A stretch of DNA of 64,000 nucleotides, taken from NCBI GenBank assembly GCA_965219415.1, contig CBDCNP010000002.1, positions 4,576,001 to 4,640,000 on the forward strand. Reading direction: 5' to 3'. Source of the DNA: Candidatus Marinacidobacterales bacterium. GTDB lineage: Bacteria; Acidobacteriota; Vicinamibacteria; Marinacidobacterales; DATDRI01. The translations under genes were made by a program, and so were the position numbers. A model generated the notes under the pieces. That model had not been told where the DNA came from. It did no database searches and saw nothing but the letters and a program-made list of their open reading frames with translations. Below, one piece after another: positions 7,022-63,047 of the stretch. Positions within the stretch are counted from its first letter, which is position 1; the number at the start of each line of letters is the position of its first letter.

Positions 7022-7174
7022 CGTCTGGTCAAAATACTCGAACGCCGAGCGGGTCAGCAGTTTGCACCTTTCCAAGGGCCGGCTGCTTCGTGCCGCGTCG
7101 GCTGGTCTCCGCGGATTTCGAGAACGCCTCCAGAATTCGAGCTTTCGGCTCCGTTCGTATTTTCGGACACGACG
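7022..7174. mobile_element. Mini-element bounded by two CGT-type termini
   Basis: Begins cgtctggtcaaaatactc, ends tattttcggacacgacg. Confidence 0.65.
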
Positions 7175-7419
7175 CGCTCTACGCCTGGATCGCGCCTGAG
7201 GAGAAAGCGAATAGCGGAATTCGAATTGGCCAAACTTCGAATTCATCCAGCGGAGCTTCATGGAAGAGAGGAAGATTCCTCCGCCAGACGGTCCAGTATA
7301 AGGAGCTATCCGAGTCTGGAAACGATGACAGAGAATTGGGGCCAGTTTGAGTCTGATTGGTGGAGGCCAGTGTCGGTTAGCAGCAAGCTGCTCTCCGACA
7401 CTGGGGTTGGATCTGGGGG

Positions 7420-8035
7420 CTCTGGGAAGAGGTCAGTCCAACGGGCTGGCGGCCATCCACAATGGCACGCACGATGTCGGGCGCCAGGAAGGCATAGCGG
7501 ATTGCCTTGCGCACCCGGGACGTTGGGATGGCGTCTTCGGTGGCAATCTCCTCATAGGTCTTGCCCGCTTTGACCCGGTCGAGCCAGGAGACGGCGTTCG
7601 CGATATTGCGCAGCAGGGTGCGGTCGATGGACTTCGGTGAGTTGCCCAGAACGAGCTTAGTCTCGACACCGCGTCGACGTAAGCGGAACGGCGCGTGAAT
7701 ACGGAGTGTATCTTCCCGAATGCGGTCGGGCCCCATGGACGGGCAAGCAGCAAACGCATCGCGGTCGAGCAGGATAGACATCGAGCCGGGGCTGATATCG
7801 ACTCGCCGAATGAGACGGAGCAGGCGGACTTCCGAGCCATTAACGTTACTCTCGGAACACAGCCCGTCCAAAGAACGATGCACCGAGGCGAGCTCTTCCA
7901 TGGTTGGAGTGTGGACCAGCGAGGCCGAGAAGTCCGGTGCTCCCACATGCTGTTGGACAAGGTGCACGACGGTCTGCTCCAGCGTGGGTGCGGACAGGCG
8001 CCAGCCGGAGAGGTCCTTTTGGCCACTGTGTTGCG
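7420..8035 (-). pseudogene. C-terminal fragment of a large serine recombinase (DUF2924-associated type)
   Basis: RLSAPTLEQTV...PFRLRRRGVETKLVL...DRTLLRNIA...AFLAPDIVRAIVDGRQPVGLT. Confidence 0.75.
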
Positions 8036-8100
8036 CGCCGCGGGCGGTGTCGAAGAAACGGATCCGGGAGCGTGCCGAGACGCGGGGTGCAGAGGCGACC

Positions 8101-8970
8101 TCAGAAACCGTGGAGGAGTTTCCCGTACTTGTCGAACAACCGGACGTTGAGCCGATCAACGCAGTCCAATACCTTGCCGATGTACGGATCGTCCAACTGG
8201 ACTCTCGTTGCCCATTTCCGAAAGGGCAGGGTGGCAAACGGGACGATCAAGGAGACGTTGCCAACGCTGACGCGAAGCGGCCGGTGCAGTGGGTAGAACC
8301 CGTGGGTTGGGTCCCCATGCAGGGAGTAGCTGCGGATGTCCTGCCACGAACCGTGAACGGACTCCGAGGGGGCGCCGTATGCGACGTCGTATAGGTTCTC
8401 GCCCATCACGTCCTCGAAGATGTGGCGGAACGTCTGGCCCCCCAGACGCCAACCGTTGGCGATCTGTTGTTCGAAGCTGTTCTCGTCCAACCCCTCCAAG
8501 GCCAGCTTGTCCTTGATCGAGCGTAGGAGCCGCCGCCCAGGCTTGCTGTGATAGTACACGGCCCCGGCAGCGGCTTGTTCGAGGATCTTGAACCTGTTCC
8601 CGTAGGAGCAGCGCCGGTAGTCTTCCATCGTGGATGCGCCCGAACGGAGCAGATAGGTTGCGGTGACGGCGACTTCCATGAGCGATCGTTCGGCGATTAC
8701 CGCGTACTCCGCGCTGTCCTCCTTGTAGATCCAGACGACGAGCTTCAGGAGTTTCCACGTGCGAACGAGCAGACCGAGTATAGGCGCGTCGTCGATGGAG
8801 AAACCCGTCGGATTCCGTTCGACGTTCTTCATGCGGGAGAGGATGTCGAGAATCTCCGCGACGTCCTCGTAAAAGGCCAGTGCCAGCCGGTCCGCCTCCG
8901 GCGTGGAGGCAAGGAACCGCGCCAAGTAGTCGCGCTTGTACTTCGCAAGAATTGCCTGGATTTCGTTCAT
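8101..8970 (-). CDS. DUF5677-like (HEPN-like) protein, paralog 2
   Basis: 289 aa; RSLME...ATYLL...EDYRRCSY...SESVHGSW. Confidence 0.6.
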   Translation of the reverse strand: MNEIQAILAKYKRDYLARFLASTPEADRLALAFYEDVAEILDILSRMKNVERNPTGFSIDDAPILGLLVRTWKLLKLVVWIYKEDSAEYAVIAERSLMEVAVTATYLLRSGASTMEDYRRCSYGNRFKILEQAAAGAVYYHSKPGRRLLRSIKDKLALEGLDENSFEQQIANGWRLGGQTFRHIFEDVMGENLYDVAYGAPSESVHGSWQDIRSYSLHGDPTHGFYPLHRPLRVSVGNVSLIVPFATLPFRKWATRVQLDDPYIGKVLDCVDRLNVRLFDKYGKLLHGF

Positions 8971-9011
8971 GACCGGAAGGTTGCGAGGGATCGCTCATAG
9001 AACGCCGTCGG

Positions 9012-9914
9012 CTAGGCTGAATCGGCGGCCGCGGACCCCTCGGCAGTCGGGCCGTCGTAGAGTTCGTCGAACTTGTAGTAGATCGTACGCGAGTAGACTT
9101 GGATTCGGTCGAGGGTCTGCCGCAGGGACTTGTCCGGCAGTCGAATTCTCTCGATCCAAAGGGCGTACGGGGGCGTCGCGTATCGGACTAACGGCAGTAT
9201 GGCACGGGCGTCTACGCCGACGAACGGCGCGTACGCGGAGAACGTGCCATCGTCGGTCCTCAAGAGGCACCAGTCCATGGATTCGTTCCACGAACCGTGT
9301 ATGGCTTCAGACATCATGCCGTAGACGAACGGGAATTCGTCCGGGCCGGCCACGTCGCCGAAGATATCGTACAGGGACTTCCCCTGGAGGCGCCAGTGAT
9401 TCCGCCTCTGCTGAGCGAAACTGTCCTGGGACAGGTCTTCGAGAGCGAGGTCGTCGAGGGCGGACTGCAGAACGCGCTGACCGGCAGCCGTTCGAAAGAA
9501 CTCGGATCCGCTCTCGCGCTTGCGGAGTATCCTGAGCGTGTCCTTGTACGAACACCGCCGGAAGTCCTCTACGGCCTCGTCTCCCTCGCACAGAAGGTAG
9601 GTGGCGATGATCGCCGATTCGATCAACGGGCGGGAGAACACGGAAAGGTACTCGCCGTTGCCGAGCTCGTAGAACCGGCAGATGAGTCGGAACAGCTTCG
9701 CGACGCGTGTCAGAAGACCGACGACGGGGGCGTCCGAAAGGTTGTACCCGGAAGGGTTCCGGCTTGGGTTGCGCATCAGCGTGAGCAGGCGAAAGGTCTG
9801 AGCTGCATCGCTGCCAAAGGTCAGCGCAAGGCGATTGACTTCGTCGAGCGACTCAAGACGGTCGAGAATTCGGCCTTCCTCGTACTTCAGCCAGATGCGG
9901 TCGATTTCTTGCAT
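9012..9914 (-). CDS. DUF5677-like (HEPN-like) protein, paralog 1
   Basis: RPLIE...ATYLL...EDFRRCSY...SEAIHGSW; collinear with the adjacent ORF. Confidence 0.6.
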   Translation of the reverse strand: MQEIDRIWLKYEEGRILDRLESLDEVNRLALTFGSDAAQTFRLLTLMRNPSRNPSGYNLSDAPVVGLLTRVAKLFRLICRFYELGNGEYLSVFSRPLIESAIIATYLLCEGDEAVEDFRRCSYKDTLRILRKRESGSEFFRTAAGQRVLQSALDDLALEDLSQDSFAQQRRNHWRLQGKSLYDIFGDVAGPDEFPFVYGMMSEAIHGSWNESMDWCLLRTDDGTFSAYAPFVGVDARAILPLVRYATPPYALWIERIRLPDKSLRQTLDRIQVYSRTIYYKFDELYDGPTAEGSAAADSA

Positions 9915-10080
9915 ATGAGGTCTCCCCCGTTGGGAGACGGATTCTGGCAGACACTTCACGAACCGTCAACGAACCGATCTGGATCCCGGTGCTTCTCGTC
10001 GATTCGCGTTGCTCGCGCCCACGGCCATCATGCCAGACCCGTCGATGGCGTTGGGATGCGCGACCAGACGCGACATTTTG

Positions 10081-10246
10081 GGTGCTTGCGCTGTTTGCTG
10101 TTGGTGATGTGTACGTATCCCATTGCAAAAAAAGCGCTTACGCTCTATTTAGCGCGCGGCGAAGGTCGTGAGCGCTATTTTGGCTGTAATTTAATGCAGC
10201 GTAAAGTCTTAGCGTTATCTCACCAACACTTAATAGCGGAAGCACC
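10081..10246. mobile_element. 166-bp MITE with IS1-family-like GGTGCTT(C/G)CGC ends (copies 32790-32955, 34126-34291)
   Basis: Terminal inverted repeats ggtgcttgcgc...gcggaagcacc matching the ends of the IS1-family element at 34406-35605; three similar copies. Confidence 0.8.
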
Positions 10247-10417
10247 GATTTGTGGTCTATTTCAAAAGGGCCGAGTTTTGGCACAGGACGGGTTGCTACG
10301 TTTCTACCATCGGGAAGCCGCATGAGTATTTTGACCTCACGGGAAGCACCGGAAGTTCGCCAATCTCATACAGCTCGAGTTTATGGAAGGGACAGGTCCA
10401 GATACGCTGTTGGTTCG

Positions 10418-12703: not shown

Positions 12704-12825
12704 ATGCTCTGATAGTAGTATTGTCGCCGTTACCGGACAACGCGGGGGAGGTGCTGTGTGGAAGGATTGGTAGGGTTTCTCGCGATCGGCCTCGTCGCCG
12801 GGTGGCTCGCAGCAGGTCAGCTGGT

Positions 12826-13194: not shown

Positions 13195-13528
13195 CGTCCT
13201 GTGCCAAAATTCGGCTCTTTTGAAATAGACCATCAATCAGCAGCTTAGTGTCTGTGTGTCCCGATGTCGGAAGTTCGGGAATTCGGGGCTGTGATTCTAA
13301 AAAAAGAAGATCGCGTACCGCTGGATCGACTTTTTGCGGAGCACAGGCTCCACCTTGCGAACAGCTTGGCTCGTCTGGGCAAGCTCGACGACCGTAAGCA
13401 GTGATTGCGCCGGCCCGGGGAGTGGTAGTACCATTTTGGGTAGTCTCGAATGAAACACATCAGACTAGTTGGGGCCTTCGTGCCAAAGAAAGATCGGTCG
13501 GAGGAACTGCATCGCCAAGTAAACGAGC

Positions 13529-13994: not shown

Positions 13995-14079
13995 CGTCCT
14001 GTGCCAAAACTCGGCCCTTTTGAAATAGACGATAAATCAGCAGCGTAGTGTCTGTGTTTTCGACCGGCCAGTGAGCGTA

Positions 14080-15841: not shown

Positions 15842-16285
15842 CGGACGTTCGCTCTTTTGCGCCGTAAAGTCCAGTCCAATGGGCGCTTCCGCGGGTGCGC
15901 AGTTCGCGGCCTGCAGCTCGTCCTGCAGCCGATTTGAGCCAGCCAGCCGTGCGTACCCCAGTGGGCCTGTCGCCCGCCACCCGCAGCCCAGGGGGTCGGA
16001 AGCCAGCCCTGCGGCGCGAAATACCCAGGATTCTGCGCGGATTCCAAGGGCGTCTAAGCTGCTGATTTGTGGTCTATTTCAAAAGGGCCGAGTTTTGGCA
16101 CAGGACGGGGTTGTAGGTCAAGCGGGAGACGGTCAGGAAACGGCCTCTGTTGAAAGGGGTTTGCGCTTCATAATTCAGAGTGTGGTAAACTGTACTTGAC
16201 TTGTCATACCGCTTAGGTGTATAGCTTCCCTTCCGTTTCTAAACAGGAGCCGCTTATGAGTCTTAACCCAATGATTCGAGACGCT

Positions 16286-16867: not shown

Positions 16868-17054
16868 TACTGCTTCAAATCCCGATAGCTAAGCCTTTTC
16901 CCGTCCATCCCTCGGACAACCTCGGCCATCTGGTCGATGGTATCAGATTCGCGGACGTTATGCCGCCTGTGCCTTCTATTTATTCATCCGCGCGCCCCGA
17001 ACCTGATCGGTCTCCGATCTTCCGGGACTATGCCTGCATGATTTCGTCGTTTGT

Positions 17055-17302: not shown

Positions 17303-17604
17303 CGTCCTGTGCCAAAACTCGGCCTTTTGAAACAGGACATCATATCAGCAGCTTAGAGTCTGTGTTTGCGCCCGGGCCAAGGGCCGCAGGCTTTACAATC
17401 GTCTGTCCCGAGGGTGTTATCTTCAGATCCATGATGACCTACCACGCGCAATTCCTACTGCTCGTTGTGGCTGGCTGGGTCAACCGCCAGCAACAGGATG
17501 TGATCGACTACCTGCAAGAGGAGAACCGTGTGCTCCGAACCGGGGCTTCGGGGCAAGCGTCTCAGGCTCTCTGACGACGACCGGCGTAGGCTCGCCGTCA
17601 AGGC
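17303..17604 (+). pseudogene. CGT-ended element: terminus plus transposase 5' fragment
   Basis: cgtcctgtgccaaaac end; AGWVNRQQQDVIDYLQEENRVLR; related fragments at 22441-22710 and 33780-34125. Confidence 0.8.
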
Positions 17605-17812
17605 CGTGAGGTCAAAATACTCATGCGGCTTCCCGATCTTCGATAAGTGCTTCCGCAGTCAAGTGTTGGCGGCCGGCGCGTAACCTGTTCGCGTGCTAGA
17701 GTCTTAGCCTGATTTCGAGAGGCGCAGTTCTTTCGTCAATGCCGGCTGGGCCGAGTTTTGGCACAGGACGGGCTCAATTCCTTAGAAGTTTGACAAGAGC
17801 GGGAGGGAAAAA

Positions 17813-17989
17813 ATGAGTCGCAAGATGGTTTGTAGCGAGTGCGAGTGCGGGGTCGATATCTGCGACGCGCTTTCCGACACCAAGCGGCTGTGCTGCGTCT
17901 GTTGGGCGCTTGAGCAGGAAACCGAGACGCCCTACGAGTCCATGTGCTCGAAGTGCTCCGAGCGCGTGAAAGAATGGAACGGACTATGA
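17813..17989 (+). CDS. Small Cys-rich protein, followed by a truncated ATPase-like start (MRLEVENLMGIEK)
   Basis: 58 aa with CxxC pairs, strong RBS, ATGA overlap with the next ORF, which is cut at 18069. Confidence 0.45.
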   Translation: MSRKMVCSECECGVDICDALSDTKRLCCVCWALEQETETPYESMCSKCSERVKEWNGL

Positions 17990-18130
17990 GGCTTGAGGTC
18001 GAAAACCTGATGGGAATCGAGAAGGTTGAGTTCGACCTTCTCCCGGGCCGGGTGGTCGAACTCGTGGGCGTCCGGTCAAAATACTCGAACGCCCAGCATC
18101 GGGAAGCCGCATGAGTATTTTGACCTCACG

Positions 18131-20657: not shown

Positions 20658-21056
20658 GTTTGACCCACCTGTACCTTCTATAGATCCTTCTGCCGAGTGG
20701 ACGGCGCACCAATGGTCAATGCTTTTCCATGGGATACGGCACCTCGGTATCCGGTACGAGATCGAGACCAGACCTACGGAGCGTACTTCGACAGTCGCGT
20801 CGACGGTCTTGGGATGGAGCAGGTCCTTCGTTTGACACGGGATGACACGCCTCACGCTGTCGGAAGCTGCGGCGGCTGATTTATGGTCTATTCTAAAAAG
20901 GCCGAGTTTTAGCACAGGACGCGGTCCCTACCGCGAAGGATCACAGGCCAATGCTCTCGATCCGCCTAACACTTAGCGCGGCTCGTGATCGCTAGCGGGC
21001 ACCTCGCGCGATGTATAGACGGGGGAACGTGGGAGAGAGTATTATTCACTTCCAAA

Positions 21057-22373: not shown

Positions 22374-22714
22374 CGTATGGTGCAAAAACTCAGCCGGTCA
22401 TCTTCCGCAGCGGTAAGTGATTTCGGCTAAGATGCTTGCGATGAGCACATTTGTCTCGCCACAAATCTTCCTGGTCTCGCTCCTGGCCGGTTGGCTGAAC
22501 CAGGAGCAGCAGAAGCTCCTCGAGTATCTTGCAGGAGGAGAACCGTCACCGTTTCGTCGGCGGAAGGACGACGTGGGGGCAGTTTCTTCGGAGTCACTGG
22601 GACACCCTTGCCGCTGCCGATTTCTTCACCACCGAAATCTGGACTCCCGCAGGTCTGGTTACGTTCTACGTCTTGTTCGCGATTCAGCTGAAGACCCGCC
22701 GGGTCCATATCTCG

Positions 22715-24626: not shown

Positions 24627-25066
24627 GGGCCGAGTTTTGGCACAGGACGGGAGCGCACCTTGCGCTCGGACTTGAGGTAACTATTCGCTGGCTGGGAACG
24701 GCAGTAGATTCTCCTTGCCTTGATGATTCCCGTCGTGTCCAAAAACACAAACGAACTCAAGACTCACGCGCCGGGCCGTTTCGTATTAGACGTGTCTACG
24801 CTTGGTTCGCCAATGGAAGCTAGAATCCTCAGTGATGAGCACGCCGAGCCAGCCCTTGACATTGTTGGTCCTCGCCATGGCTACATCCGTAGGAATCTGG
24901 ACCGTGTTTCAGTTCCAGTGTGGCCGTCTGCTCTTTTAGGGCAGCGATACCGTTCTGGTTTGTCAACTTCGTGTAAGGCCATTAGAATAGCGCCGTTTGA
25001 GTATCGCTCGAAGCTCAACCACCTAATACGTCGAGTTAGCTGCAAACGAAAAAGGAGACTTGAGGA

Positions 25067-27093: not shown

Positions 27094-27321
27094 AAGCAGA
27101 ATCGGGCTGTCATCGTACGGAAGCCTCGGGGCCGCCGTGTTCGGAGGACTGCCCGGACAGATAGGTCGCGCAATCATCGGCGGCATTGGTCCCGTCTGGT
27201 CAAAATACTCAAACGCCCAGTGGGTCAGCAGTTTGCACCTCACGGCTTGGCGGGTTGCTAAGTTTCTATCATCGGGAAGCCGCATGAGGGTGGGCTTGAT
27301 CCGGTTTCGTAGACGGTTTAG

Positions 27322-33474: not shown

Positions 33475-34405
33475 CCTATCACCTACTCTGGGCCAGGCGG
33501 GTGGAGGAGGAATGAGGTTTCGAGCCCGTGAGGTCAAAATACTCATGCGGATTCCCGATGGTAGAAACGGAGCAACCCGCCAAGCCGTTCACGGGAGCTT
33601 ACTTTACGCTCGGACAGAAGTAATGGGTCGCTGGCTGGGAACAGCAGCAGGATTCTCCTTGCCTTGATGATTCCTCTTGTGATGATGGTAGACGACGTAC
33701 TCCGTCCTGTGCCAAAACTCGGCCCTTTTGAAATAGACCATAAATCAGCAGCTTAGTGTCTGTGTTTGAGGTTCTTGAGTGCGCCGCAGGCGCGTATATC
33801 CCCACGTCGGGTTCGCCTGCGTCACGCGTACAATGAGTTCACGGATGTCCTTCGCCGTCGGGGGTCGGCCTGGGCTCCGGTTCTTGCTGCCATCGTACTT
33901 GGCTGCAATGAGGTAGCGGTACCAACGCAGAATCGTAGCGGATGTGGCAACGGACGCAATCTGGGCCAGCGCCTCGCGGCCCAAAGCCTTGGCCTTGACA
34001 GCGAGCCTGCGCCGATCGTCGTCAGAGAGCCTGAGACGCTTGCCCCGAAGCCCGGCTCGAAGCACGCGGTTCTCCTCTCGCAGGTAGTCAATCACATCCT
34101 GTTGCTGGTGGTTGACCCAGCCAGCGGTGCTTGCGCTGTTTGCTGTTGGTGATGTGTACGTATCCCTTTGCAAAAAAAGCGCTTACGCTCCATTTAGCGT
34201 GCGGCGAAGGTCGCGAGCGCTATTTTGGCTGTAATTTAATGCAGTGTAAAGTCTTAGCGTCATCTCACCAACACTTAATAGCGGAAGCACCGTCCGAGCA
34301 CAAGGTGCGCTCCCGTGAACGGCTTGGCGGATTGCTGCGTTTCTACCATCGGGAAGCGCATAAGTATTTTGACCTCACGGGCAAGTGGAGCTATTCGGCT
34401 CTTGG

Positions 34406-36571: not shown

Positions 36572-37010
36572 GTCTCGGAGCTTGTCATGTCCGAAAACGC
36601 GAACGGAGCCGAAAGCTCGAATCCTGAGGTGTTGTCGAAATTCGCGGAGACCTGCCAACGAGGCACGGGCTCTGAGATATGTGAGCCCGAGCAGAAGCCG
36701 TCGTGTCCAAAAAGACAAACGTACTCAAGACCCGTCATTCCAAAAACTTGTAAGTAGGCGCTTCCGCGCACAGGCACCGCGACCTAGGCCGGCGCGCCCA
36801 GGACGGGATCTGGGTCGGCGGGTTGCCGACCCCGTCCTGTGCCAAAACTCGGCCCTTTTGAAATAGGCCATAAATCAGCAACTTAGTGTCTGTGTTTGCG
36901 GCCGTGCCAAGGGCCGAGCGCGAACAAACGACGAGATCATGCAGGCATCGTCCCGGGAGACCGGAGACCGATCAAGTTCGGCGCGCGCGGATGAATAAAT
37001 AGAAGGCACA

Positions 37011-38540: not shown

Positions 38541-38898
38541 TGTTTCACTCCAGTTGATATGTTATGGAGGATGTGTCCCGAGGTCCGTGGAAAAAGAACG
38601 GCGCCCTCCACTCCGTCATCGGAGTATCATACCAGGCGGTGACCTCCGCGTGTTCGAGAACCTCGCTCAGACGTTGGTAGCCGTCGATGCGTCGTAGTTG
38701 AATCTGGCCAGAGGCGATAAGCCCAAACAGCAAAGCGACCGCAGACTCCTCGTCCTGTGCCAAAACTCGGCCCTTTTGAAATAGACCACAAATCAGCAGC
38801 TTAGACGCCCTTGGAATCCGCGCAGAATCCAGGGTATTTCGCGCCGTAGGGCTGACTTCCGACCCATGGGGCTGGCGGATGAATAAATAGAAGGCACA

Positions 38899-39530
38899 GG
38901 CAAGAAACCTCACTGACATGTGGGATGGTTTCCTCCTTGGCAAGCGGTACCTCATCCACGACCGGGACCCACTATTCACCGAGGCGGTACGTGGGCTGTT
39001 GAGAGATTCAGGCGTGAAGCCCCTGCGCCTTCCCGCCAATAGTCCGAATCTGAACGCATACGCGGAAAGATTCGTTCTCTCCATACGTCGAGAGTGTCTG
39101 GACCGCTTCGTACCTCTCAGTGAGCGACACCTGCGCACAGCGGTAACCGAATACGTAGTGCACTATCACACCGAACGGAACCACCAAGGTCTCGGCAACG
39201 AGCTCATCACACCTCTGCCGGCAAGCGCGAATGACGCTGGCCCCATCGTGTCGCGAGAGCGACTTTTGGGCATTCTCAACTACTACTGCCGTGCCGCGTA
39301 GATGGTCGCCGGCGACGGTAGCCCCTCGGCGGGCTCGACCGGCGTAGCGTGGAAACCGCTTCAGGAACACGCTTGGATATTCGCTCTCGACTAGGTGGTC
39401 ATCTGCATGGTGACGACCCCCCCGCCCAAGACGATTGTACAGCCCACGGCCCTTGGCCCGGTCGCAAACACAGACACTAAGCTGCTGGTTTATGGCCTAT
39501 TTCAAAAGGGCCGAGTTTTGGCACAGGACG
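38899..39530 (+). mobile_element. CGT-ended element: transposase 3' fragment and right end
   Basis: YLIHDRD...[12 protein letters not shown]...ERNHQG...ILNYYCRAA, then terminal repeat ending ttttggcacaggacg. Confidence 0.85.
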
Positions 39531-39646
39531 GGACGCGGAAGTCAGCCCTGCGGCGCGAAATACCCTGGATTCTGCGCGGATTCCAAGGGCGTCTAAGCTG
39601 CTGATTTATGGTCTATTTCAAAAGGGCCGAGTTTTGGCACAGGACG

Positions 39647-40864: not shown

Positions 40865-40949
40865 CGTGAGGTCAAAATACTCATGCGGCTTCCCGTTGGA
40901 AAGGTGCAAACTGCTGACCCGATGGGCGTTCGAATATTTTGACCAGACG
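40865..40949. mobile_element. 85-bp mini-element with CGT termini (62-bp relative at 18069-18130)
   Basis: cgtgaggtcaaaatactc...gaatattttgaccagacg inverted ends. Confidence 0.8.
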
Positions 40950-41449: not shown

Positions 41450-41885
41450 CGTCCTGTGCCAAAACTCGGCCCTCTTGAAATAGCTGATAAATCAGCAGCT
41501 TAGCGTCTGTGTTTTGCGACCGACAGAACGAAACCACCAAGGTCTCGGCAACGAGCTCATCACCCCTCTGCCGGCAAGCGCGAAGGACGCTGGTCTCATC
41601 GTATCGCGAGAGCGACTTTGGGGCATTCTCAAGTACTACTACCGTGCCGCGTCGATTGTCGCCGACGATGGTAGCCCCTCGGTGGACTCGACCGGCGTAG
41701 CGTGGAAACACAACTTCAGGAACACGCTTGGATATTCGCTCTCGATTAGGTGGTCATCTGCATGGTGATGACCCGCCCGCCCAAGACGATTGTAGAGCCT
41801 ACAGCCCTTGGCCCAGTCGCAAACACAGACGCTAAGCTGCTGATTTATCAGCTATTTCAAGAGGGCCGAGTTTTGGCACAGGGCG
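41450..41885. mobile_element. ~435-bp MITE with ~65-bp terminal inverted repeats (CGT-type)
   Basis: cgtcctgtgccaaaactcggccctcttgaaatagctgataaatcagcagcttagcgtctgtgttt and its reverse complement flank a transposase 3' remnant. Confidence 0.88.
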
Positions 41886-41987
41886 ACCACGTTGTATCTC
41901 AGTCATTCGGTGCTGACAAGGGCTGATACCACACGGGGTTGCTACGTTTCTACCATCGGGAAGCCGCATGAATATTTTGACCTCACG

Positions 41988-42237: not shown

Positions 42238-43321
42238 GGCTTACGAAGATGTCCTTCGGATCATCGTGGCTCCCGTGGTCGATAGGCTGCCGAAATAATA
42301 TCCCCAACCATTAATATGCAACGGTTTAGTATGTGCTACCTGCTTACTTTCTCGTTCGGTACGCCTCAATATGAACCGGCCTCGACTGAACCAAGAGCCG
42401 CCTGTGGACGAATCTAGAGCGGAATTCGGTTCGCGACGGTCGGCTCCTTGGCCGAGTAGTCTCGGCACCGGTGACGTTGGGTCGAACCAGTCTGGACCGA
42501 TGATGGCTGGCTGTCGATGGTGAATGTCGGCAAGCCCTGGAGAGGCCGTCGTCGGGTGCTGTCAAGTTTTCCACGGCCTGACGGCCACCCCGAATGAATG
42601 AAACGCGGTAGTCTCTGGAGGTGGCACCGGCTCAACACGACGCCTGAGGGAGCTCGGTTTTGACGTCACTGCCCCAAAACGCTACACCCTGAGTTTCTTA
42701 TTAGTTGAGATTTTGAGCTCGGAGCGGCCCGCTCAGAGTTCGAGACCTCAACTTGACAGTATCCTCCAAGCGCAAGGTGCGCTCCCGTCAACGGCTTGGC
42801 GGGTTGCTCCGTTTCTACGATCGGGAAACCGCATGAGTATTTTGACCTCACGGGGTTATCGACATGCGGCGAGGACCGCCCGACAAGTCCGGAGGGGCCA
42901 ACCTCTGTTCAGACTCCAGCGCCCGGAACGTGGCGAGGGCTAACGGTCGCTTCCGAGAACCACTGCTCTCCGTACAACCTTGACGACTACGCCTACCCGC
43001 AGTCCGTCAAAGATGACATCGTGCACGAGCCGGGTGGCATCTACAGCCCCTACACCTGTGAGGCGTTGACTCGACCCGCGACACAGACATCAAGCACATC
43101 GCGGCACGCTCAGAGGCACACGACGCCGGGCTGTGTGCGGCGGATGCCGACACGAATTGGTACAACACGCAACGACTCTCGGAGCCGATCGGAAATGTCT
43201 CCTCGGTCGAGTACGAAATGAACTATTATCGGTCGCAGGAAGGCTCGCTATAGATGGCGAGACTCAACTAAAACGGTCTCTGGAAAGCCCGGGGCGGTTC
43301 AATTCTCATGGCGGTCACAAT

Positions 43322-44674: not shown

Positions 44675-45555
44675 TTCAGTACATCACTGGCGCCGATGTA
44701 GCTGCCGAAGTCAGACTCGTGCGGGCAGCCTTTCGAGGCACGATCGCGATTGTCGAAGGCTCGACTGACTACAAGCTGTTCCAAAGATTTACTGACGAGC
44801 GACTCTGCCGATTGCTGCCGAGTCATAGTAAGGAAAACGCCCTTGAGGCTGTTCGACTGCTAGAGGAGACTGGATCAGAGGGCGTTCTATGCATCGTTGA
44901 TGCCGATTACTGGCACCTGGACGGTGGCGCACCCACTTCTGGAAACGTGATTCCTACCGATCGGCACGACATCGAAGTCGACATCATTTGCAGTAGAGCA
45001 CTTGATCGTTTCTTGCGCGAGTATGGATCGAAAACGAAGACCCAAAGCTTTGTCTCCGCAGAAGAAAACAAACCACTTTCAGAGATACTCCTCACTCGAC
45101 TTCTACCGCTCGGACACCTACGCCGACTTTCGCTCCTGAACAATTTTTCGCTTCGTTTCGAGGGCCTGAAATTTCGTCGCTTCGTCGATCCGGCGGCATT
45201 GCTGGTCGACATAGACGCTCTCGTCTCCCAGGTCCTTAACCTCACTCGCGACTCGTCGATCGACGAAGGAAGCTTGCTTAGCAAGCTAGCTGAGGCGGTA
45301 GAAGACGCTATCGACGCGGAGCAATGTTGCTGCGGACACGACGTAGTCGAGCTCCTCTCGCTCGGGCTCCGTCGCGCTCTCGGTAGCCAGAGAGCCGCTG
45401 TTTCATCAGTAGAGAACCTGGCGAGAGCGTTACGGCTCGCTTTTGACTGGCTGGACCTGTCGTCCATGCGCATGTTTCGCCTAGTCACTGCATGGGAAGA
45501 AGCCAATCCACCGTACGTCGTTTTCTCTCCCTCCCCGTCCTGTGCCAAAATTTGA
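44671..45555 (+). CDS. DUF4435/TOPRIM protein, PARIS AriB-like
   Basis: IVEGSTD, IVDADY, HDIE, CGHD motifs; GTGA overlap with the ATPase. Confidence 0.8.
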   Translation: MIQYITGADVAAEVRLVRAAFRGTIAIVEGSTDYKLFQRFTDERLCRLLPSHSKENALEAVRLLEETGSEGVLCIVDADYWHLDGGAPTSGNVIPTDRHDIEVDIICSRALDRFLREYGSKTKTQSFVSAEENKPLSEILLTRLLPLGHLRRLSLLNNFSLRFEGLKFRRFVDPAALLVDIDALVSQVLNLTRDSSIDEGSLLSKLAEAVEDAIDAEQCCCGHDVVELLSLGLRRALGSQRAAVSSVENLARALRLAFDWLDLSSMRMFRLVTAWEEANPPYVVFSPSPSCAKI

Positions 45556-49896: not shown

Positions 49897-50383
49897 CGTC
49901 GTGTCCAAAAACACAAACGAACTCAAGACCGGCGCGCCAAGACGTTTCGGTCGGTGGCCCGGCGGCGACAGCGTGCAGAATCTCCACCCGCGATGGCAGA
50001 TTCAAGCGGCCCTTGGAAAGGTGCAAACTGCTGACCCGCTCGGCGTTCGAGTATTTTGAGCAGACGGGTTGGCGTCGCGCCCGTCAAGCTGCCCGCACGC
50101 AGCCCGGATTTGAACTCGTTCGCGGAGCGCTGGGTGAAGTCAGTCAAAGAGGAATGTCTCTCGAAGCTCATCCTGTTCGGCGAGAAGTCGCTCCGTCATG
50201 CGCTTAGGGAGTACGTCGTCTACTATCATCATGAGAGGAATCATCAAGGCAAGGAGAATCTGCTGCTGTTCCCAGCCAGCGACCCGTTACCTCAGTCCGA
50301 GCGCAAGGTGCGCTCCCGTGAACGGCTTGGCGGGTTGCTCCGTTTCTACCATCGGGAAGCCGCATGAGTATTTTGACCTCACG
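49897..50383 (+). mobile_element. CGT-ended mini-element (49897-50066) followed by transposase 3' fragment and right end
   Basis: SPDLNSFAERWV...ERNHQG...RERLGGLLRFYHREAA* then gtattttgacctcacg. Confidence 0.85.
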
Positions 50384-54013: not shown

Positions 54014-55298
54014 TGTGCATCGTCAAAACTGCTCCGCCCACGAAATCAAGGACTTACGCTCCGCTTGAATTCCGGGCCGAAGACGGCGAAACTCCGCCGC
54101 TATGCTCGACGTTGTTGTCTTCCTCGTCTCACTTGGCGTCCGTGTCATTCGGGCGATGTGTCGGCGCCGCGCCGACCTGGTGTTGGAGAACGTCGCTTTG
54201 CGGCAGCAAGTGACGGCGCTGAAGAAAGAGCGCCCACGCCCACCGCTCGAAGACACGGAACGGGCTTTCTGGGTTGCTCTTCGAGGTTCGTGGCCCGTGT
54301 GGGCGAGCCGCCTGCTCATCGTCCACGCGGACACCGTGGCCCGTTGGCATCGCGACCGATTCCGACGGTACTGGGCAAAGATCTCGCAGCGCCGCTATCC
54401 CGGTCGGCCTCGGATTGATGCCGAGATTCGCCGCCTCGTCCGCACGATGGCGCAAGACGGCTGGGGGGCGCCACGCATCCATGCTGAGCTCACCAAGCTC
54501 GGTTTCATCATCTCCGAGATTACGGTGTCGCGATACCTGCCGCGGCATCCCGCGGAGCCCGACCAGCTGAAGCGATGGATGGCTTTCTTGCGCAACCATA
54601 AAGACGATATCGCCGCCATGGATCTGTTCACCGTGCCCACCGCTTCGCTCCGGCTGCTGTACGGTTTCTTCGTCATCGAGCACGGCCGTCGGCACATCGT
54701 TCACTTCAACGCCACGTTCCACCCGACGTCTGCTTGGGTTATTCAGCAACTGCGTGAGGCGTTTCCCTACGACACCGCTCCGAAATATCTCATCTTCGAT
54801 CGCGACTTCATCTTTAGCGCTGCGGTCATCGAGTTCATCAAGGCAACGGGCACAAAACCCACTCGCACTTCGTTTCGCAGCCCATGGCAAAACGGAACCG
54901 CGGAGCGGTGGGTCGGCAGCTGCCGTCGCGAGCTCCTTGAGCACGTCGTGGTTCTCGGCGCATGTCATCTCATCCGGCTCGTGCGGGCTTACATCAGCTA
55001 CTATCACGAGGACCGTTGCCACTTGGGGCTGAACAAGGACACACCGAGCTTGAGAGCGGTCACGCACCGACCGTCTCCTACGGCGAAAGTCGTCGCACTG
55101 CCGCGAGTCGGTGGATTGCACCATCGATACGAGTGGCGAGAGGCAGCCTGAGTCAGCTTGGTTGCTCGCGTTACTCGGCTGGTCGCCGAGAAGTTCGTCC
55201 TCAGCACCTTCCCTCGCGCGCTGACCACGCTCTCCAGCATGTGCTCAAGGGCAGTCCGGGCCTAGAGTCCAGTCCCGGATTAATAATGATGATGGACA
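54014..55298 (+). mobile_element. Intact IS481-like IS (349-aa transposase 54102-55151)
   Basis: TGT...ACA ends with imperfect IR; full DDE ORF; interrupts a secreted-protein ORF on the left and abuts the CRISPR array on the right. Confidence 0.92.
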
Positions 55299-57455: not shown

Positions 57456-58513
57456 TACTTTGGGATAAAAGGGATATAGTCGGGGATGTCGCCGCGGAGT
57501 TTTCGGGCCAATAGCTTGGATTGGACGCTGAACACTAGCCCTAAACGGATATTTTTCTTGAACAGTGCGTGCTTTACTTCCGTTTGCTTGCGCTTTTGCC
57601 AGGACTGGATGACCTCTCTCCTGCCCCGGTCGGTCAACTCCACGGCACCGCCCTCTCGTTGGCGAAAATGTTTGGACAAGATTTGGCGGCGGTTGACGAG
57701 AGTCAACGCTAGCCTCTCTGCTAAACACGGCCGAAATTCTTCCATCAGATCCAAGGCACAGGCGGGCCTTCCCGCGCGCGTCGCATGGAGCCACCCAACG
57801 TATGGATCCAGTCCAGCAGTCGTCAACGCGGCCAAACAATCGTGGCGAATCAAGGCGTAGATGAAGGAAAGCAAGCAGTTTATCCGGTCTCGGGGCGGCC
57901 ACCGCGTGCGGGTTACGAAACGGAAATCCTCTCGTTGTTGTTTGAGCATGTACTGGAACACCGAGAAGTAGATCTTGGCACCCATACCTTCGATTCCTCT
58001 GATCGGGTCAAGTGCTTCCCGGAGCCCACAACCTTGGGAAACGGGCAGGTCATCGCTGAGTTGGTGGATTAGTCGGGCGAGCCCCGCGGCCGCGCCCACC
58101 AGTTTCTCGCGATCCGAATCGTCGGCTTCCCGGCCAGACCGTAAGAGGTTAGAGCGCGCGTTTTGCAGTTTTCCGGCAACGAACTGCCGGGCAATGCGTG
58201 AAGCATCACCTGGACTGTCCGCCGTGGCATACTGAGCCCGGCGCAGCAAGTAGCGAGTGTCTCCACTTCCCAGGACCTGCGCCAACAAATAGCCGTTCTC
58301 CGTGTGATAATGCACCGCCACCTGATGCTTCCAGCACAAGGCCATTGCCGGAGGCGTAACCACGACTTGCCCGAATGTGCAGATGCTGTCCAGGTGGTGA
58401 ATCGGCACCTTCAAGCGGGTTTCCTTTTCGATCTCGATCCGGAGCGTCAAATGCTCCTTGAGCACTATGGTTCCCGGTGTTGTCAGGTAAAGGGTGTTTT
58501 GGATGACGGCCAT
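57455..58513 (-). CDS. cas1: Cas1 (type I-C-like)
   Basis: NTLYLTTPG...RGIEG...INCLLSFIY...GLDPYVGWLH...LALDLMEEFR-type motif. Confidence 0.95.
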   Translation of the reverse strand: MAVIQNTLYLTTPGTIVLKEHLTLRIEIEKETRLKVPIHHLDSICTFGQVVVTPPAMALCWKHQVAVHYHTENGYLLAQVLGSGDTRYLLRRAQYATADSPGDASRIARQFVAGKLQNARSNLLRSGREADDSDREKLVGAAAGLARLIHQLSDDLPVSQGCGLREALDPIRGIEGMGAKIYFSVFQYMLKQQREDFRFVTRTRWPPRDRINCLLSFIYALIRHDCLAALTTAGLDPYVGWLHATRAGRPACALDLMEEFRPCLAERLALTLVNRRQILSKHFRQREGGAVELTDRGRREVIQSWQKRKQTEVKHALFKKNIRLGLVFSVQSKLLARKLRGDIPDYIPFIPK

Positions 58514-58557
58514 GATGCGTCTTGTCGACTCGCACCGCACGCGGAGCTTGGCAATCG

Positions 58558-59178
58558 CTACTTGGAGGTATCGAACACGTCCCGATAGGCCAAGGCCAGC
58601 GTAGGCGGAGCGCTGGTGATCTCTGGCAAACAGTCTTCAAAAAGCGAACACTCTGAACATTGGGGTTTGTGCACAGCTTGTGGGACCGCTTCCTCTTCGA
58701 TCAGCCGGTGCAAGGCCCTGATGGCCTGCTCAGTGAGGTGGCGTAAATCACTGGTAAACAGAACCTCTCGGCGGCATTTGCTTTTGGCGTGGAAGATCGC
58801 GGCCCGCGGTATATTCATTCCAAACATTTCTTCGAGGCATAGGGCTTGCGCGCAAAGCTGGGCCTCGTCGTTCTCGAACTTGCGGCGTCTGCCCTTTTTA
58901 AACTCGACCGGTGCCAACGAACCGTTGGGATGGCGCTCGACGATATCGCATTTGCCGCTGAGCCCGAGTCGTTCTGACCAAATGGGCAAGGCGCGCAGCA
59001 GGGTCACTCCCCTGACAGTCTCGTAGCCGGAAACGTCGGTCAGCTCGTGGACGATATCGCCGAGCACGGTGTGCTCGTTAGATCTGCGCCACCCCTCAAT
59101 CGCCTTTAATGCCGCCCGTCTCTGGCAAAAAAGGTAGTCGTTGAGGAGAGAGAGTGGGATGGGATCGGGCGATTTCAT
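58558..59178 (-). CDS. cas4: Cas4
   Basis: YLFCQRR...GKCDIVE...VEFKKG...QLCAQALCLEE...CSECSLFEDC. Confidence 0.95.
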   Translation of the reverse strand: MKSPDPIPLSLLNDYLFCQRRAALKAIEGWRRSNEHTVLGDIVHELTDVSGYETVRGVTLLRALPIWSERLGLSGKCDIVERHPNGSLAPVEFKKGRRRKFENDEAQLCAQALCLEEMFGMNIPRAAIFHAKSKCRREVLFTSDLRHLTEQAIRALHRLIEEEAVPQAVHKPQCSECSLFEDCLPEITSAPPTLALAYRDVFDTSK

Positions 59179-59691
59179 AATATCGTCAAGTCTGTCTCAG
59201 AGTAAACGAAAGCACCGACGATGAATTCCGCACGCTGTTGAATCGACTCATCAAAGTAGAAAAATCCCACGCACTCTCCGGAGAAGGCTAACGGCTCGTG
59301 ACTGAGTTGCAGTGATCGTACCAATGATATCGAAGGATAACCACGACCTTCGTACCGAGTTGCGAACTCGTGCGGCGTCCTGTCCCCCAGCCTCTGTGAG
59401 GACGCCCCTAGTTGTACGCCGTCCTGTCCAAAAACACAAACGAACTCAAGACTGGCGCGCCAGGCCGTTTCGATCGTCATCACCCCGTGGCGAGCCCCAG
59501 ATCAGGGGCGTGTCGGAGGCGATGTCGGCGATTCGGGTTCTCCGCACGCGCAGCGAAAACACCGTCCAGCAACGGGATGCTACGCTCCCTGGGCGAAGAC
59601 CTGGATCCAGGTCCTGGGCAAAGATGGACATTAAGGAGGCCAGGGCCACACCTGGACCAGAACGTGCTAGGCCGGCTACGCGGCAGTAGCC

Positions 59692-60974
59692 TGTCCATCA
59701 TCATCATTATTAATCCGGGACTGGAGGCCCGGACCGCCCTCGAGCACATGCTGGAGAGCGTGGTCAGCGGGCGAGGGAAGCTGCTGAGGACGAACTTCTC
59801 GGCGACCAGCCGAGTAACGCGAGCGACCAAGCTGACTCAGGCTGCCTCTCGCCACTCGTATCGATGGTGCAGTCCACCGACTCGCGGCAGTGCGACTACT
59901 TTCGCCGTAGGAGACGGTCGGTGCGTGACCGTTCTCAAGCTCGGTGTGTCCTTGTTCAGTCCCAAGTGGCAACGGTCCTCATGATAGTAGCTGATGTAAG
60001 CTCGCACGAGCCGGATGAGATGACATGCACCGAGAACCACGACGTGCTCAAGGAGCTCGCGACGGCAGCTGCCGACCCACCGCTCCGCGGTTCCGTTTTG
60101 CCATGGGCTGCGAAACGAAGTGCGAACGGGTTTTGTGCCCGTTGCCTTGATGAACTCGATGACCGCAGCGTTAAAGATGAAGTCGCGATCGAAGATGAGA
60201 TATCTCGGAGCGGTGTCGTAGGGAAACGCCTCGCGTAGTTGCTGAATAACCCAAGCAGACGTCGGGTGGAACGTGGCGTTGAAGTGAACGATGTGCCGGC
60301 GACCGTGCTCGATGACGAAGAAGCCGTACAGCAGCCGGAGCGACGCGGTGGGCACGGTGAACAGATCCATGGCGGCGATATCGTCTTTATGGTTGCGCAA
60401 GAAAGCCATCCATCGTTTCAGCTGGTCGGGCTCCGCGGGACGCCGCGGCAGGTATCGCGACACCGTGATCTCGGAGATGATGAAACCGAGCTTGGTGAGC
60501 TCAGCATGGATGCGTGGCGCCCCCCAGCCGTCTTGCGCCATCGTGCGGACGAGGCGACGAATCTCGGCATCAATCCGAGGCCGACCGGGATGGCGGCGCT
60601 GCGAGATATTTGCCCAGTACCGTCGGAATCGGTCGCGATGCCAACGGGCTACGGTGTCCGCGTGGACGATGAGCAGGCGGCTCGCCCACACGGGCCACGA
60701 ACCTCGAAGGGCAACCCAGAAAGCCCGTTCCGTGTCTTCGAGCGGTGGGCGTGGGCGCTCTTTCTTCAGCGCCGTCACTTGCTGCCGCAAAGCGACGTTC
60801 TCCAACACCAGGTCGGCGCGGCGCCGACACATCGCCCGAATGGCACGGACGCCAAGTGAGACGAGGAAGACAACAACGTTGAGCATAGCGGCGGAGTTTC
60901 GCCGGCTTCGGCCCGGAATTCAAGCGGAGCGTAAGTCCTTGATTTCGTGGGCGGAGCAGTTTTGACGATGCACA
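59692..60974 (-). mobile_element. Intact IS481-like IS (349-aa transposase 59837-60886), inverted relative to the 54014 copy
   Basis: Same ends and near-identical ORF. Confidence 0.92.
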
Positions 60975-61559
60975 GCCGCAGAAAGGGCCGCAACAGGACG
61001 ATACCCGCATCGGCCATTTCTGAGATCGGCTCCCCGTCTGCGGTAGCCCGACCTCGATTCTGGGCCTCTCGGGCGGCCTCTTTTCCGCCGCCGCACGGCC
61101 CGGTCAGCGGCCCGCTCCCCCCTTTGGCGCGAACGTGGCACTCGAAAATCGAGATTAGAGACGAAAACCGAAAATGAGGCCAGATCAGCCCTTCTAGCGC
61201 GTCTCTGGTGACACCTGATCCTGCAAAACCGCGCCAACGGCGCGGAAAATCTCACCCGTCTCTGCAGTGCCACAATTGGCCAGACTGGGTGGCGGATAGT
61301 GTAGTTTGGAGCTATCCGGTCTCGGCTGGCAACCGTGAAAAACAGGGAGTTTACAGAGAAGAATGGACACAAAATGACCCCCGAGCGCCAAAAAACCATC
61401 CGGGAGTGCGTTCTGGCTAAGGATGCCGGGGGTAGGTCGCAGACGTCGCAGGCGTCAATAAAGCCAAGTTCTACGCCTGTTTAGCGCGTGGGGAGCAGGC
61501 CAAGAGTGGCCTATATCGTCAATTTTATCAAGAGCGAAACCTATGGTAGAATTCCAAAA

Positions 61560-62759
61560 ATGGCTGGGCGGAAAACCAAACTCACCCCCGAGCGCCAAGA
61601 GAAGATCCTCAAGTGCGTTCGAGCAGGGATGACCTATAAGGCGGCAGCGGAGTCCGCTGGCATAGCCCTAGAGACGCTTTGTAGGTGGATCGCACGTGGG
61701 GAGAAGGCGGAGAGCGGCCTATTTCATGAATTTTACGAGTCCGTCCAGGAGGCCCTGGCACACTTCGAATGGGTTCACCTCGAGAACATCGAGCGGAGCG
61801 CCCTCGGGGAGAGCAAGATTATCCAGCAGACGGTGAAATACGAGGTCGGCGAAATCCTAAACGGCCAGTTGAAAGACGGGAAGGTCAAGTACGCTACGAC
61901 CGCGACGAAGTCTCGCCCACGGAACTGGAAGAGGTCGGCGTGGCTGCTCGCGCGGCGGTTGCCCGAGAGGTGGGCGCCACGAGCAAGAGGAGAGGCTCGC
62001 GATAGACAACCCACCGTCATTTGGCTCCTACCGGATAATGGACGTATGCGCCGAATGCCGGGGGTTAAGACTGTGCAATTGCCAGGAAAGAGGCCAAGAG
62101 CGGACAATTCCGTGAATTTTAAGATTCCCCCAAACATGGCTGGACGGAAAACTAAACTCACCCCCGAGCGCCAAGAGAAGATCCTCAGGTGCGTTCGAGC
62201 AGGGATGATCTATAAGAATGCAGCGCAGTCCGCTGGCATAACCCCAGAGACACTTTGCAGGTGGCTCGCACGTGGGAAGGTAGAGAGCGGCCTATTTCAT
62301 GAATTTTACGAGTCCGTCCGGAAGGCCCTGGTACACTTCGAATTGGTTCACCTCGAGAACATCGAGCGGAGCGCCCTCGGGGAGAGCAAGATTATCCAGC
62401 AGACGGTGAAATACAAGGGCGGCGAAATTCTAAACGGCCAGTTGAAAGACGGGAAGGTCAAGTACGCTACGATCGTGTCGAAGTTTACCCCGCCGAAGGC
62501 GGATGCTTCGATGTGGCTGCTCGCGCGGCGGTTCCCCGAGAGGTGGGGGGCACAAGCAAAAGGAGAAGCTCACGAAGGAAAGGCTCCCGATAGACAAGCC
62601 ACTGTCATACTCTACAAACTGGATAAAAGTGGACGTGTATGCGACTTGGTGCTCCCCTCCGATCCTCACTTTAGTAGCGAAATGCTGAAATCACCCGATT
62701 TTCTGCGGAGAGTTCAGAAGACGCTATTGGCGGCGGGGCATCCGCGTCCGACTGCATAG
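61560..62759 (+). CDS. Tandemly duplicated HTH protein resembling phage terminase small subunits
   Basis: Two ~190-aa units each starting MAGRKTKLTPERQEKIL and containing WLLARR.PERW. Confidence 0.65.
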   Translation: MAGRKTKLTPERQEKILKCVRAGMTYKAAAESAGIALETLCRWIARGEKAESGLFHEFYESVQEALAHFEWVHLENIERSALGESKIIQQTVKYEVGEILNGQLKDGKVKYATTATKSRPRNWKRSAWLLARRLPERWAPRARGEARDRQPTVIWLLPDNGRMRRMPGVKTVQLPGKRPRADNSVNFKIPPNMAGRKTKLTPERQEKILRCVRAGMIYKNAAQSAGITPETLCRWLARGKVESGLFHEFYESVRKALVHFELVHLENIERSALGESKIIQQTVKYKGGEILNGQLKDGKVKYATIVSKFTPPKADASMWLLARRFPERWGAQAKGEAHEGKAPDRQATVILYKLDKSGRVCDLVLPSDPHFSSEMLKSPDFLRRVQKTLLAAGHPRPTA

Positions 62760-62922
62760 AGTTCGTGTCCGCCCCGCCTATCGCGGAGCACCCGTGGCCG
62801 AATCACGGCGGAGGACAACGATGGAGCCTGACCAGAAGCCCGCTGCGCCGGACGGTTCCCCCGCTGATGCTCAGGGTGCCGATAATAATGATGATGAAGA
62901 ACACGCAACCGATGCACCGATG

Positions 62923-63047
62923 GGTGCTTCCGCAGTCAAGTGTTGGCGGCCGCCGCGTAACCTGTTCGCGTGCTAGAGTCTTAGCCTGATTTCGAGAGGC
63001 GCAGTTCTTTCGTCGATGCCGGCTGGGCCGAGTTTTGGCACAGGACG
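62923..63047. mobile_element. Hybrid mini-element: IS1-like end joined to a CGT-type end (copy at 17647-17770)
   Basis: gtgcttccgcagtcaagtgttgg...ggctgggccgagttttggcacaggacg nearly identical at both loci. Confidence 0.8.

Follow-up and report, generated by a model that had tools for sequence, protein, structure and literature searches.

Where do the mobile elements whose fragments make up a mosaic of insertion sequences (IS) really end, and what becomes of the target when one of them moves? The question is raised by a 64,000-nucleotide stretch of Candidatus Marinacidobacterales bacterium (positions 4,576,001 to 4,640,000 of contig CBDCNP010000002.1, hereafter the window), which is part of contig C3 in a genome (G000) of 8.05 Mb, three contigs and 59% G+C, and in which a first-pass annotation had listed four related terminal motifs beginning 5'-CGT. 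Few features of rve-type transposases and integrases are as strongly conserved as the terminal CA-3', which IS3, IS481, IS21, Mu and retroviral ends have in common, and the IS481 norm (in part after ISfinder) is 5'-TG(T)...(A)CA-3'. As read from the sequence, the mobile unit described here runs exactly from 5'-CGT to ACG-3', its 3' terminal dinucleotide being CG and not CA. Our main reading, to which we assign a probability of roughly 0.6, is that these CGT elements form a distinct lineage of DDE elements with a single open reading frame (ORF) in the IS481/IS3 superfamily, have many miniature derivatives, and move by something other than simple insertion. That they are a distinct lineage of this superfamily with CGT...ACG termini, a half-site preference, many miniatures and members in several phyla we state with confidence. 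New relative to the first-pass annotation are the absence of target duplications in both the CGT family and a TGT-ended sister IS, flanks that are not contiguous, and an asymmetric half-site beside the ends.

Termini and boundary of the CGT elements

Our motif search of the window, with up to one mismatch allowed, revealed 36 ends: 17 matches to the A motif (CGTCCTGTGCCAAAA), 9 to B (CGTGAGGTCAAAATA), 5 to C (CGTCYGGTCAAAATA) and 5 to D (CGTCSTGTCCAAAAA). None is expected by chance, as dinucleotide-preserving shuffles of the window gave a mean of 0.00-0.01 matches per motif. Every end position listed in the first-pass annotation was recovered; its D ends all stood, but its count of four became five with a further match at 7160-7174 on the minus strand. 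When the window ends are viewed with their surroundings, the interior of each motif continues as the family consensus and the exterior varies from copy to copy. Motifs B and C mark opposite ends of a single element, given the spacing at which they face inward (B...C units of 1196-1200 bp, 8 copies genome-wide; the full-length B/C element is 1199 bp). The rve-type transposase remnants said to adjoin the ends were located by tblastn, A-type at 17431-17605, 33784-34125, 38849-39298 and 41523-41651 and B/C-type at 22568-22714, 33546-33665 and 50068-50364. The ends, found by motif match with any further evidence in brackets, are:

7022..7036, plus: C-type end (CGTCTGGTCAAAATA), opposite end of the B/C element
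7160..7174, minus: D-type end, 1 mismatch, absent from the earlier list
10276..10290, minus: A-type end (CGTCCTGTGCCAAAA), exact match
10327..10341, minus: B-type end (CGTGAGGTCAAAATA), interrupted after 51 bases by the A end at 10290
13195..13209, plus: A-type end, exact match
13995..14009, plus: A-type end, exact match
16093..16107, minus: A-type end, exact match
17303..17317, plus: A-type end, then N-terminal transposase remnant (aa 1-58) at 17431-17605 (tblastn)
17605..17619, plus: B-type end
17756..17770, minus: A-type end, interleaved with the B ends at 17605 and 18130, not properly nested (end map)
18069..18083, plus: C-type end, CGTCC variant
18116..18130, minus: B-type end, paired with the C end at 18069 as a miniature element of 62 bp, 18069-18130
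20907..20921, minus: A-type end, 1 mismatch
24635..24649, minus: A-type end
24731..24745, plus: D-type end (CGTCGTGTCCAAAAA)
27193..27207, plus: C-type end
33527..33541, plus: B-type end of a B...B unit, 33527-34379, with B/C transposase remnant (aa 316-355) at 33546-33665 (tblastn)
33703..33717, plus: A-type end within the B...B unit, with A transposase remnant (aa 14-127) at 33784-34125, minus strand (tblastn)
34365..34379, minus: B-type end
36699..36713, plus: D-type end
36833..36847, plus: A-type end
38751..38765, plus: A-type end adjoining an IS256-like copy cut at about its base 182, with C-terminal A remnant (aa 210-356) at 38849-39298 (alignment, tblastn)
39516..39530, minus: A-type end
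39632..39646, minus: A-type end, its flank the 3' part of a TGT-ended sister IS copy (alignment)
40865..40879, plus: B-type end of an 85-bp B-C miniature element, 40865-40949
40935..40949, minus: C-type end of the 85-bp miniature element
41450..41464, plus: A-type end of a 436-bp A...A unit, 41450-41885, with C-terminal transposase remnant inside at 41523-41651 (tblastn)
41871..41885, minus: A-type end, CGC variant
41973..41987, minus: B-type end
42838..42852, minus: B-type end
45536..45550, plus: A-type end
49897..49911, plus: D-type end
50052..50066, minus: C-type end, 1 mismatch
50369..50383, minus: B-type end beside a C-terminal B/C transposase remnant (aa 257-355, 100% identical) at 50068-50364 (tblastn)
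59420..59434, plus: D-type end, CGTCC variant
63033..63047, minus: A-type end

At 17303-18130 the ends interleave (A plus 17303, B plus 17605, A minus 17770, C plus 18069, B minus 18130) and are not nested, a pattern not expected from successive simple insertions.

Genome-wide profiles built from distinct ends (A 451, B 87, C 77, D 141) have C, G and T at positions 1-3 in 94-98% of cases, so that CGT is constant and the elements end in CG...CG. Outside the element, position -1 is C in 55-78% of distinct ends by type, in line with the annotated preference for a flanking C, position -2 is C or G in nearly all of them, -4 is A or T in about 80%, and -7 and positions further out are unbiased. When flanks were compared with their paralogues, homology stopped most often at element base 1 (307 of 1112 distinct comparisons; A 165/727, B 44/101, C 35/96, D 63/188). 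For B, C and D nearly all of the remaining signal lies at +1, and for A a tail extends to +5 because the sites often resemble CGTCC; a further 439 stops fall earlier and are ascribed to divergence among paralogues. The IS256-like copy left of 38751 aligns with its paralogues exactly to base 38750. CGT thus belongs to the element, as the annotation had proposed, and terminal conservation, the paralogous sites and the relatives in other phyla (below) agree in putting the boundary at its C rather than at an internal TG. The annotation had also proposed that CG-3' ends are transferred. This holds for the ends themselves, which are 5'-CG...CG-3'; the chemical step, in which the transposase would cleave and transfer the CG-3' end, is read from sequence alone.

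Two other placements of the end were weighed. A TG lies 2-5 bases inside in every type, and a Streptomyces relative (38% identical) has inverted repeats starting with TG, which would favour an internal TG (TGTGCC in A, TGAGGTC in B) as the true end and CGT(N0-2) as a conserved target. However, CGT is constant beside more than 450 different flanks, homology to paralogous sites ends at its C, and CGT is better conserved across phyla than the next two bases, so we consider this placement extremely improbable. A little less remote, but still very unlikely, is an element running T...A and bordered on both sides by a CG that arose as a 2-bp duplication of its target, the target being CG within CCCGGG-like sites. 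Every copy begins and ends with CG in flanks of the form C/CG...CG/G, an orthologous site in G000 C1 reads GATCC/CGTC, and an IS630 model matches the N-terminal helix-turn-helix region (residues 54-160, 50.7 bits against a cut-off of 100, E = 1e-13); IS630/Tc1 elements have a TA dinucleotide target duplication and a DDE_3-type core. Yet CG directly follows the flank in only 45 of 256 distinct paralogous sites, against CG in 94-98% of ends, CGT is conserved as a unit across phyla, and the catalytic core is rve/IS481-like and not IS630-like. On the paralogous sites we rejected CG as a 2-bp duplication and, with the IS630 match confined to the helix-turn-helix region, membership of IS630/Tc1-mariner as well.

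Transposases and relatives

The A transposase has 356 aa and ends in ...NYYCRAA, the B/C transposase has about 355 aa and ends in ...RFYHREAA, and the C-terminus of the D transposase, ...SYYHRDAA, was read from a D unit interrupted by an IS3-like element. Each element carries a single ORF for an rve-type DDE transposase of about 355 aa and has terminal inverted repeats, which is the IS481 layout, and the Pfam domains are rve_3 with HTH_21/HTH_32. Identity is 48% between the A and B/C transposases and 33% between those of A and the sister IS. The best NCBIfam model is IS481 (NF033577), with 95.6 bits for A, 103.9 for B/C, 95.9 for a Vicinamibacterales relative and 78.9 for the sister IS, all below the cut-off of 224; the second is IS3 (NF033516), with 81.2 and 70.2 bits below a cut-off of 160. 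The annotated IS3/IS481-type DDE affinity is therefore borne out by domain and best model, at scores under the cut-offs of both families.

Stop-free, near-full-length frames were found by tblastn genome-wide (A 9, B/C 10, D 1), which makes the family autonomous and supplies, outside the window, the full-length A, B/C and D members that the window lacks. Inside the 64 kb the same search gave no near-full-length family transposase, only fragments, as annotated. The idea that the elements are mobilised in trans stands for the window, whose copies are broken or miniature and must use a transposase from elsewhere, but not for the family, of which intact genes exist in the genome; the window copies would be mobilised by intact genes elsewhere on the same replicon.

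The CGT elements resemble the IS481 family in their one ORF without frameshift, their rve-type DDE transposase of about 350 aa, their length of 1.2-1.4 kb, their inverted repeats of 20-25 bp and their best-scoring model. They differ in scoring 96-104 bits against a cut-off of 224, in having CGT...ACG ends where TG..CA or TGT...ACA is described for IS481-type elements, and in lacking duplications where those described for IS481 members are 2-15 bp and mostly 6 bp long (PMC10045372). With IS3 they have in common a related rve catalytic core; IS3 elements, unlike ours, have orfA/orfB with a frameshift and 3-5 bp duplications, where the CGT family has one ORF, scores 70-81 bits against 160 and has no duplication. 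The IS3-like element of the same genome likewise has TG...CA ends and 4-bp duplications, both absent from the CGT family. The IS1202 group and the eukaryotic IS481EU elements are rve-type IS481 relatives with unusual duplication-length behaviour, but those described have discrete duplications (4-6, about 15 and about 25 bp) and IS481EU has TG..CA-type termini (PMC10045372), whereas no repeat of up to 34 nt and only CGT...ACG ends are seen here. No CGT-ended IS481-like element is described in the literature searched, with ISfinder and paper supplements lying outside that search and a prior listing possible.

Transposases related to these are common: all 8000 scored candidates of a protein search matched, and 531 of 552 candidate stretches in the genome collection were confirmed. 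None of the conclusions draws on the unpublished genome G007. Clear terminal repeats were found in 10 of 39 loci scanned in other taxa and all 10 begin with CGT. These CGT...ACG loci, with transposases 56-84% identical, belong to Gemmatimonadota, Myxococcota, several Acidobacteriota orders and a gammaproteobacterial metagenome-assembled genome (MAG); examples of their ends are CGTAGTGTGCCAAAAC and CGTATGGTGCCAAAAC. In the Vicinamibacterales genome G024, a 1166-bp relative has CGT...ACG in 13 of the 15 copies printed. Among the relatives CGT varies less than the two bases after it, which argues against an internal TG as the true end. In the Streptomyces relative, annotated as 'integrase core domain-containing protein', the repeats start with TG one base further in, and the pattern fits CGT being a derived state relative to TG ends. 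The lineage is thus large and spans several phyla, and a natural CG-3' lineage of this size would test what the active site truly requires. In the Vicinamibacterales genome G021, a 1027-bp left flank together with the first 424 bp of a related IS is duplicated at 100% identity (C1:900201-901651 and 3008400-3009850), an IS end thus being copied along with its flank.

Flanks, targets and the outcome of transposition

If the CGT elements inserted in the ordinary way, each copy should lie between direct repeats of its target. Among 156 adjacent end pairs we found no direct repeat of 1-10 nt at shifts of 0-5 above shuffled pairs, the sole word in excess being the trivial CG that belongs to every end, and repeats of up to 34 nt at offsets of up to 6, with one mismatch in eight allowed, did not exceed shuffled pairs either; both kinds of fixed duplication were thereby rejected. 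A palindromic 6-7 bp duplication was also rejected, as positions -6 and -7 of the flank profile do not mirror -1 and -2. The CGT family accordingly has a target duplication at 0 of its 156 end pairs, and the sister IS at 0 of 44 intact copies. None was seen by eye in 21 full-length A copies from related Marinacidobacterales MAGs, 15 copies of the relative in G024 or 10 loci of other phyla. As a control, the same procedure recovered in this genome a perfect 8-bp duplication in 8 of 22 IS256-like copies (ends GGATG...GGATCC; for instance C3 1594180, 1367 bp) and a perfect 4-bp duplication in 10 of 21 IS3-like copies (ends TGAAGT...AGTCCA; for instance C3 5129744-5131002, 1259 bp), one of the latter being a simple insertion inside an A element. 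Loss of duplications in this genome is real, yet it is not total for the IS256-like and IS3-like families.

The flanks are not contiguous in their paralogues either. The 80-nt flank has paralogues without the element for 391 ends, and both flanks do for 64 units, but not one of these 64 has its two flanks placed 40 bp or less apart; where a single reference copy holds both, the gap lies anywhere between -5707 and +5432. The A...A segment at 38751-39646, for instance, has an IS256-like copy, cut at about base 182, on one side and the final 390 bp of a sister-IS copy on the other. Partner junctions, sought among all end pairs genome-wide, amount to about 16 distinct events within 25 bp, with gaps of -16, -7 (twice), -6 and -2 plus others from +2 to +24 and no dominant value. 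The 95 end flanks of related MAGs gave only one-sided matches to G000, among them one orthologous site which reads GATCC/CGTCGACC in G000 C1 and GATCC/CGTCCTGTGCC in a related MAG (L026); the left flank alone continues there and the right flank of the element is unrelated. Of the empty sites that the annotation hoped to find in related genomes, this left side is what was obtained, and none with both flanks.

Other candidate tests gave less. The 85-bp element at C3:3577509 was rejected as an empty-site test, its flanks proving mobile themselves, and so was the isolated A copy at C3:657803, whose right junction is common to G001 and whose left flank lacks synteny; just 4 long segments of the IS-rich part at the end of G001 are also present in G000. 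No orthologous empty site was found in relatives of G021. Abutted ends or tandem dimers, considered as relics of circle junctions, come no closer than 11 bp. Sixteen public runs are available as contigs, and the contigs of 4, short and breaking at repeats, were compared; the 15 joints listed include no clean element-skipping joint and no end-to-end joint. One X1 public contig follows the left flank to base 862 of L118 and continues with 217 letters not on that stretch.

The ends do select their neighbours. Each adjoins an asymmetric preferred half-site, roughly GAYCC^, with an A flank of about S-G-A-Y-C-C ^ N-G-T and B, C and D flanks of W-N-S-C ^, which gives the annotated C-rich target preference a definite form. 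At 235 distinct paralogous sites the bases after the junction are also non-random, reading N-G-T-N-C for A (like the A end itself), G-C-C for B and N-C-C-T-C for C; they do not mirror the flank, and so lend no support to a symmetric two-ended attack with any stagger up to roughly 12 bp. Flank tetranucleotide and internal haplotype show no association (in 752 of 1000 permutations the statistic was at least as high as the one observed). The flank is therefore a target preference and not inherited sequence, and we rejected on this ground the idea that flank bases are carried over from a parent copy.

The absence of duplications and the non-contiguous flanks, beside the normal behaviour of the IS256-like and IS3-like elements, suggest an unusual transposition outcome. 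With a single end at the preferred side, and with partner junctions and duplications absent in several genomes and in the sister IS too, the data suggest that this lineage usually yields one-sided junctions rather than simple insertions. One end would be joined to one side of the target, whose other side would be lost or located elsewhere, possibly through strand transfer that is one-ended or intramolecular and is completed by replication or repair, with adjacent deletions, duplications or fusions as the outcome. A stricter version, which we offer only tentatively and consider doubtful, is that the clade makes no simple insertions at all, each CG-3' end being joined alone to an asymmetric half-site, with replication or repair then resolving the branched product. 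If that were true, every move would be a deletion, duplication or fusion; the family would be specialised in rearranging genomes and would offer a natural model of unexplained duplication-less IS movements at the centres of rearrangements. Ngan et al. (mBio 2024; PMC11708052) describe movements of this kind in the middle of a deletion and in the middle of a duplication, and in one of them the element belonged to the IS481 family. The likeness lies in an IS481-family move without duplication at the centre of a large duplication, non-contiguous DNA being joined here too, but in the cases described there it was a rare event of a normally duplicating element, whereas here it is the sole pattern for a whole family. 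Standard IS annotation, which relies on duplications, would mis-delimit or miss such elements.

Several observations weigh against reading these junctions as the product of non-simple insertion. This genome often erases duplications, as 14 of 22 IS256-like and 11 of 21 IS3-like copies (52-64%) also have none. Five distant end pairs share one reference site with overlaps of 16, 7, 7, 6 and 2 bp, perhaps split duplications whose length varies. The paralogous 'empty' sites may not represent the state before insertion, and no empty site with both flanks was found in the related genomes compared. On the side of the termini, a simple inverted-repeat finder left the ends unresolved, or returned spurious pairs, for 28 of the 39 loci scanned in other taxa, and one Planctomycetaceae relative has terminal repeats without CGT.

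The most serious alternative, though an unlikely one, is that ordinary IS481-like elements make 2-15 bp duplications here, all of them erased by recombination and adjacent deletions in an IS-saturated genome. The duplication-free IS256-like and IS3-like copies, the five overlapping pairs and the mosaic of IS fragments in this region would all fit, and recombination and adjacent deletion are described as frequent causes of missing duplications (PMC11708052). However, 0 of 156 and 0 of 44 stand against 8 of 22 and 10 of 21 in two other families of the same genome, and duplications are equally missing from the 21 related-MAG copies, the 15 Vicinamibacterales copies and the 10 loci of other phyla. 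Reciprocal recombination would moreover keep partner junctions, yet only about 16 events fall within 25 bp at about 235 testable junctions, and no overlap length dominates among them. Slightly less likely again is simple insertion in which the ends are joined bluntly (0 bp) at the midpoint of a palindrome such as ACCS/SGGT. This would account for left flanks of intact copies that end ...A-Y-C-C and right flanks that open with G-G-R-T..., as seen in this genome, the related MAGs and G024 alike. The next bases in paralogous sites are N-G-T (A) or S-C-C (B, C) and not S-G-G-T, flanks are contiguous in 0 of the 64 testable copies, and only the left flank continues at the orthologous site in G000 C1 and L026.

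The sister IS bears on whether CG ends and the loss of duplications belong together. Two copies lie in the window, with limits taken from alignment:

54014..55298, plus: sister IS with ends TGTGCATCG...GGACA and a 349-aa transposase at 54102-55151; limits approximate to a base or two
59695..60974, minus: second sister IS copy with transposase at 59837-60886; limits approximate

Its ends are canonical 5'-TG...CA-3', as annotated. Like the CGT family it has three terminal bases, 6-8 further bases and then AAAA, its transposase is related at the 33% given above, it lacks duplications and it has the same regional confinement on C3; unlike the CGT family it has TG...CA termini and a weaker flank preference (S-Y). 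Because an IS with TGT ends is also without duplications, the change of ends and the loss of duplication may be separable traits. At seven places on C3 (for example 3567670, 3435063, 4243925 and 4446385) sister-IS ends, four left and three right, directly adjoin the outer 21 bp of a repeat of A type (CGTCC...CTCGGC), and the flank beyond differs from case to case; none abuts the inner side of an A element.

Units and distribution across the genome

With a 12-base core slightly looser than the window motifs, we counted 844 ends genome-wide (497 A, 176 D, 93 B, 78 C), and units were inferred from the spacing of neighbouring inward-facing ends. Besides the B...C units, A...A units of 1423-1431 bp occur in 12 copies, and the D element is about 1.37 kb long. 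Miniature derivatives of 62-828 bp are common: the 85-bp B-C unit has 9 copies including the one at 40865-40949 in the window, A-A units of 315-318 bp have 12, D-D units of 127-129 bp have 5, mixed units of 307-311 bp (C at one end, A at the other) have 8 (for example C3 2932209-2932519) and 828-bp A-A units have 3. The units of 85, 127-129, 307-311 and 315-318 bp qualify as miniature inverted-repeat transposable elements, being short and non-coding, present in multiple copies and bounded by the terminal repeats of an autonomous element. A...D end combinations are numerous as well, and such mixed-end units, like the A/C miniatures, reflect either cross-mobilisation between subfamilies or products of rearrangement.

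The distribution is uneven. Of the 844 ends, C3 carries 788, almost all between 2.5 and 5.7 Mb (its first 2.5 Mb has 33), while C2 (0.28 Mb) carries 54 and C1 (2.07 Mb) carries 2. The sister IS is also nearly confined to C3 2.5-5.7 Mb and C2, IS256-like ends are spread over every contig, and IS3-like ends are found on C1 too. The confinement of the CGT family fits either local spread or a tolerant accessory region, and with 788 ends on C3 the family may explain a chromosome half saturated with IS mosaics. Outside the window, at C3 3577594-3578153, a 560-bp fragment with CGT-family ends on both sides was read by eye as quinolinate synthase (nadA)-like. It is 99% identical to copies in other genera (three in G003, and in G002 and G018), and seems to be part of a gene that was picked up by, or transported between, IS ends.

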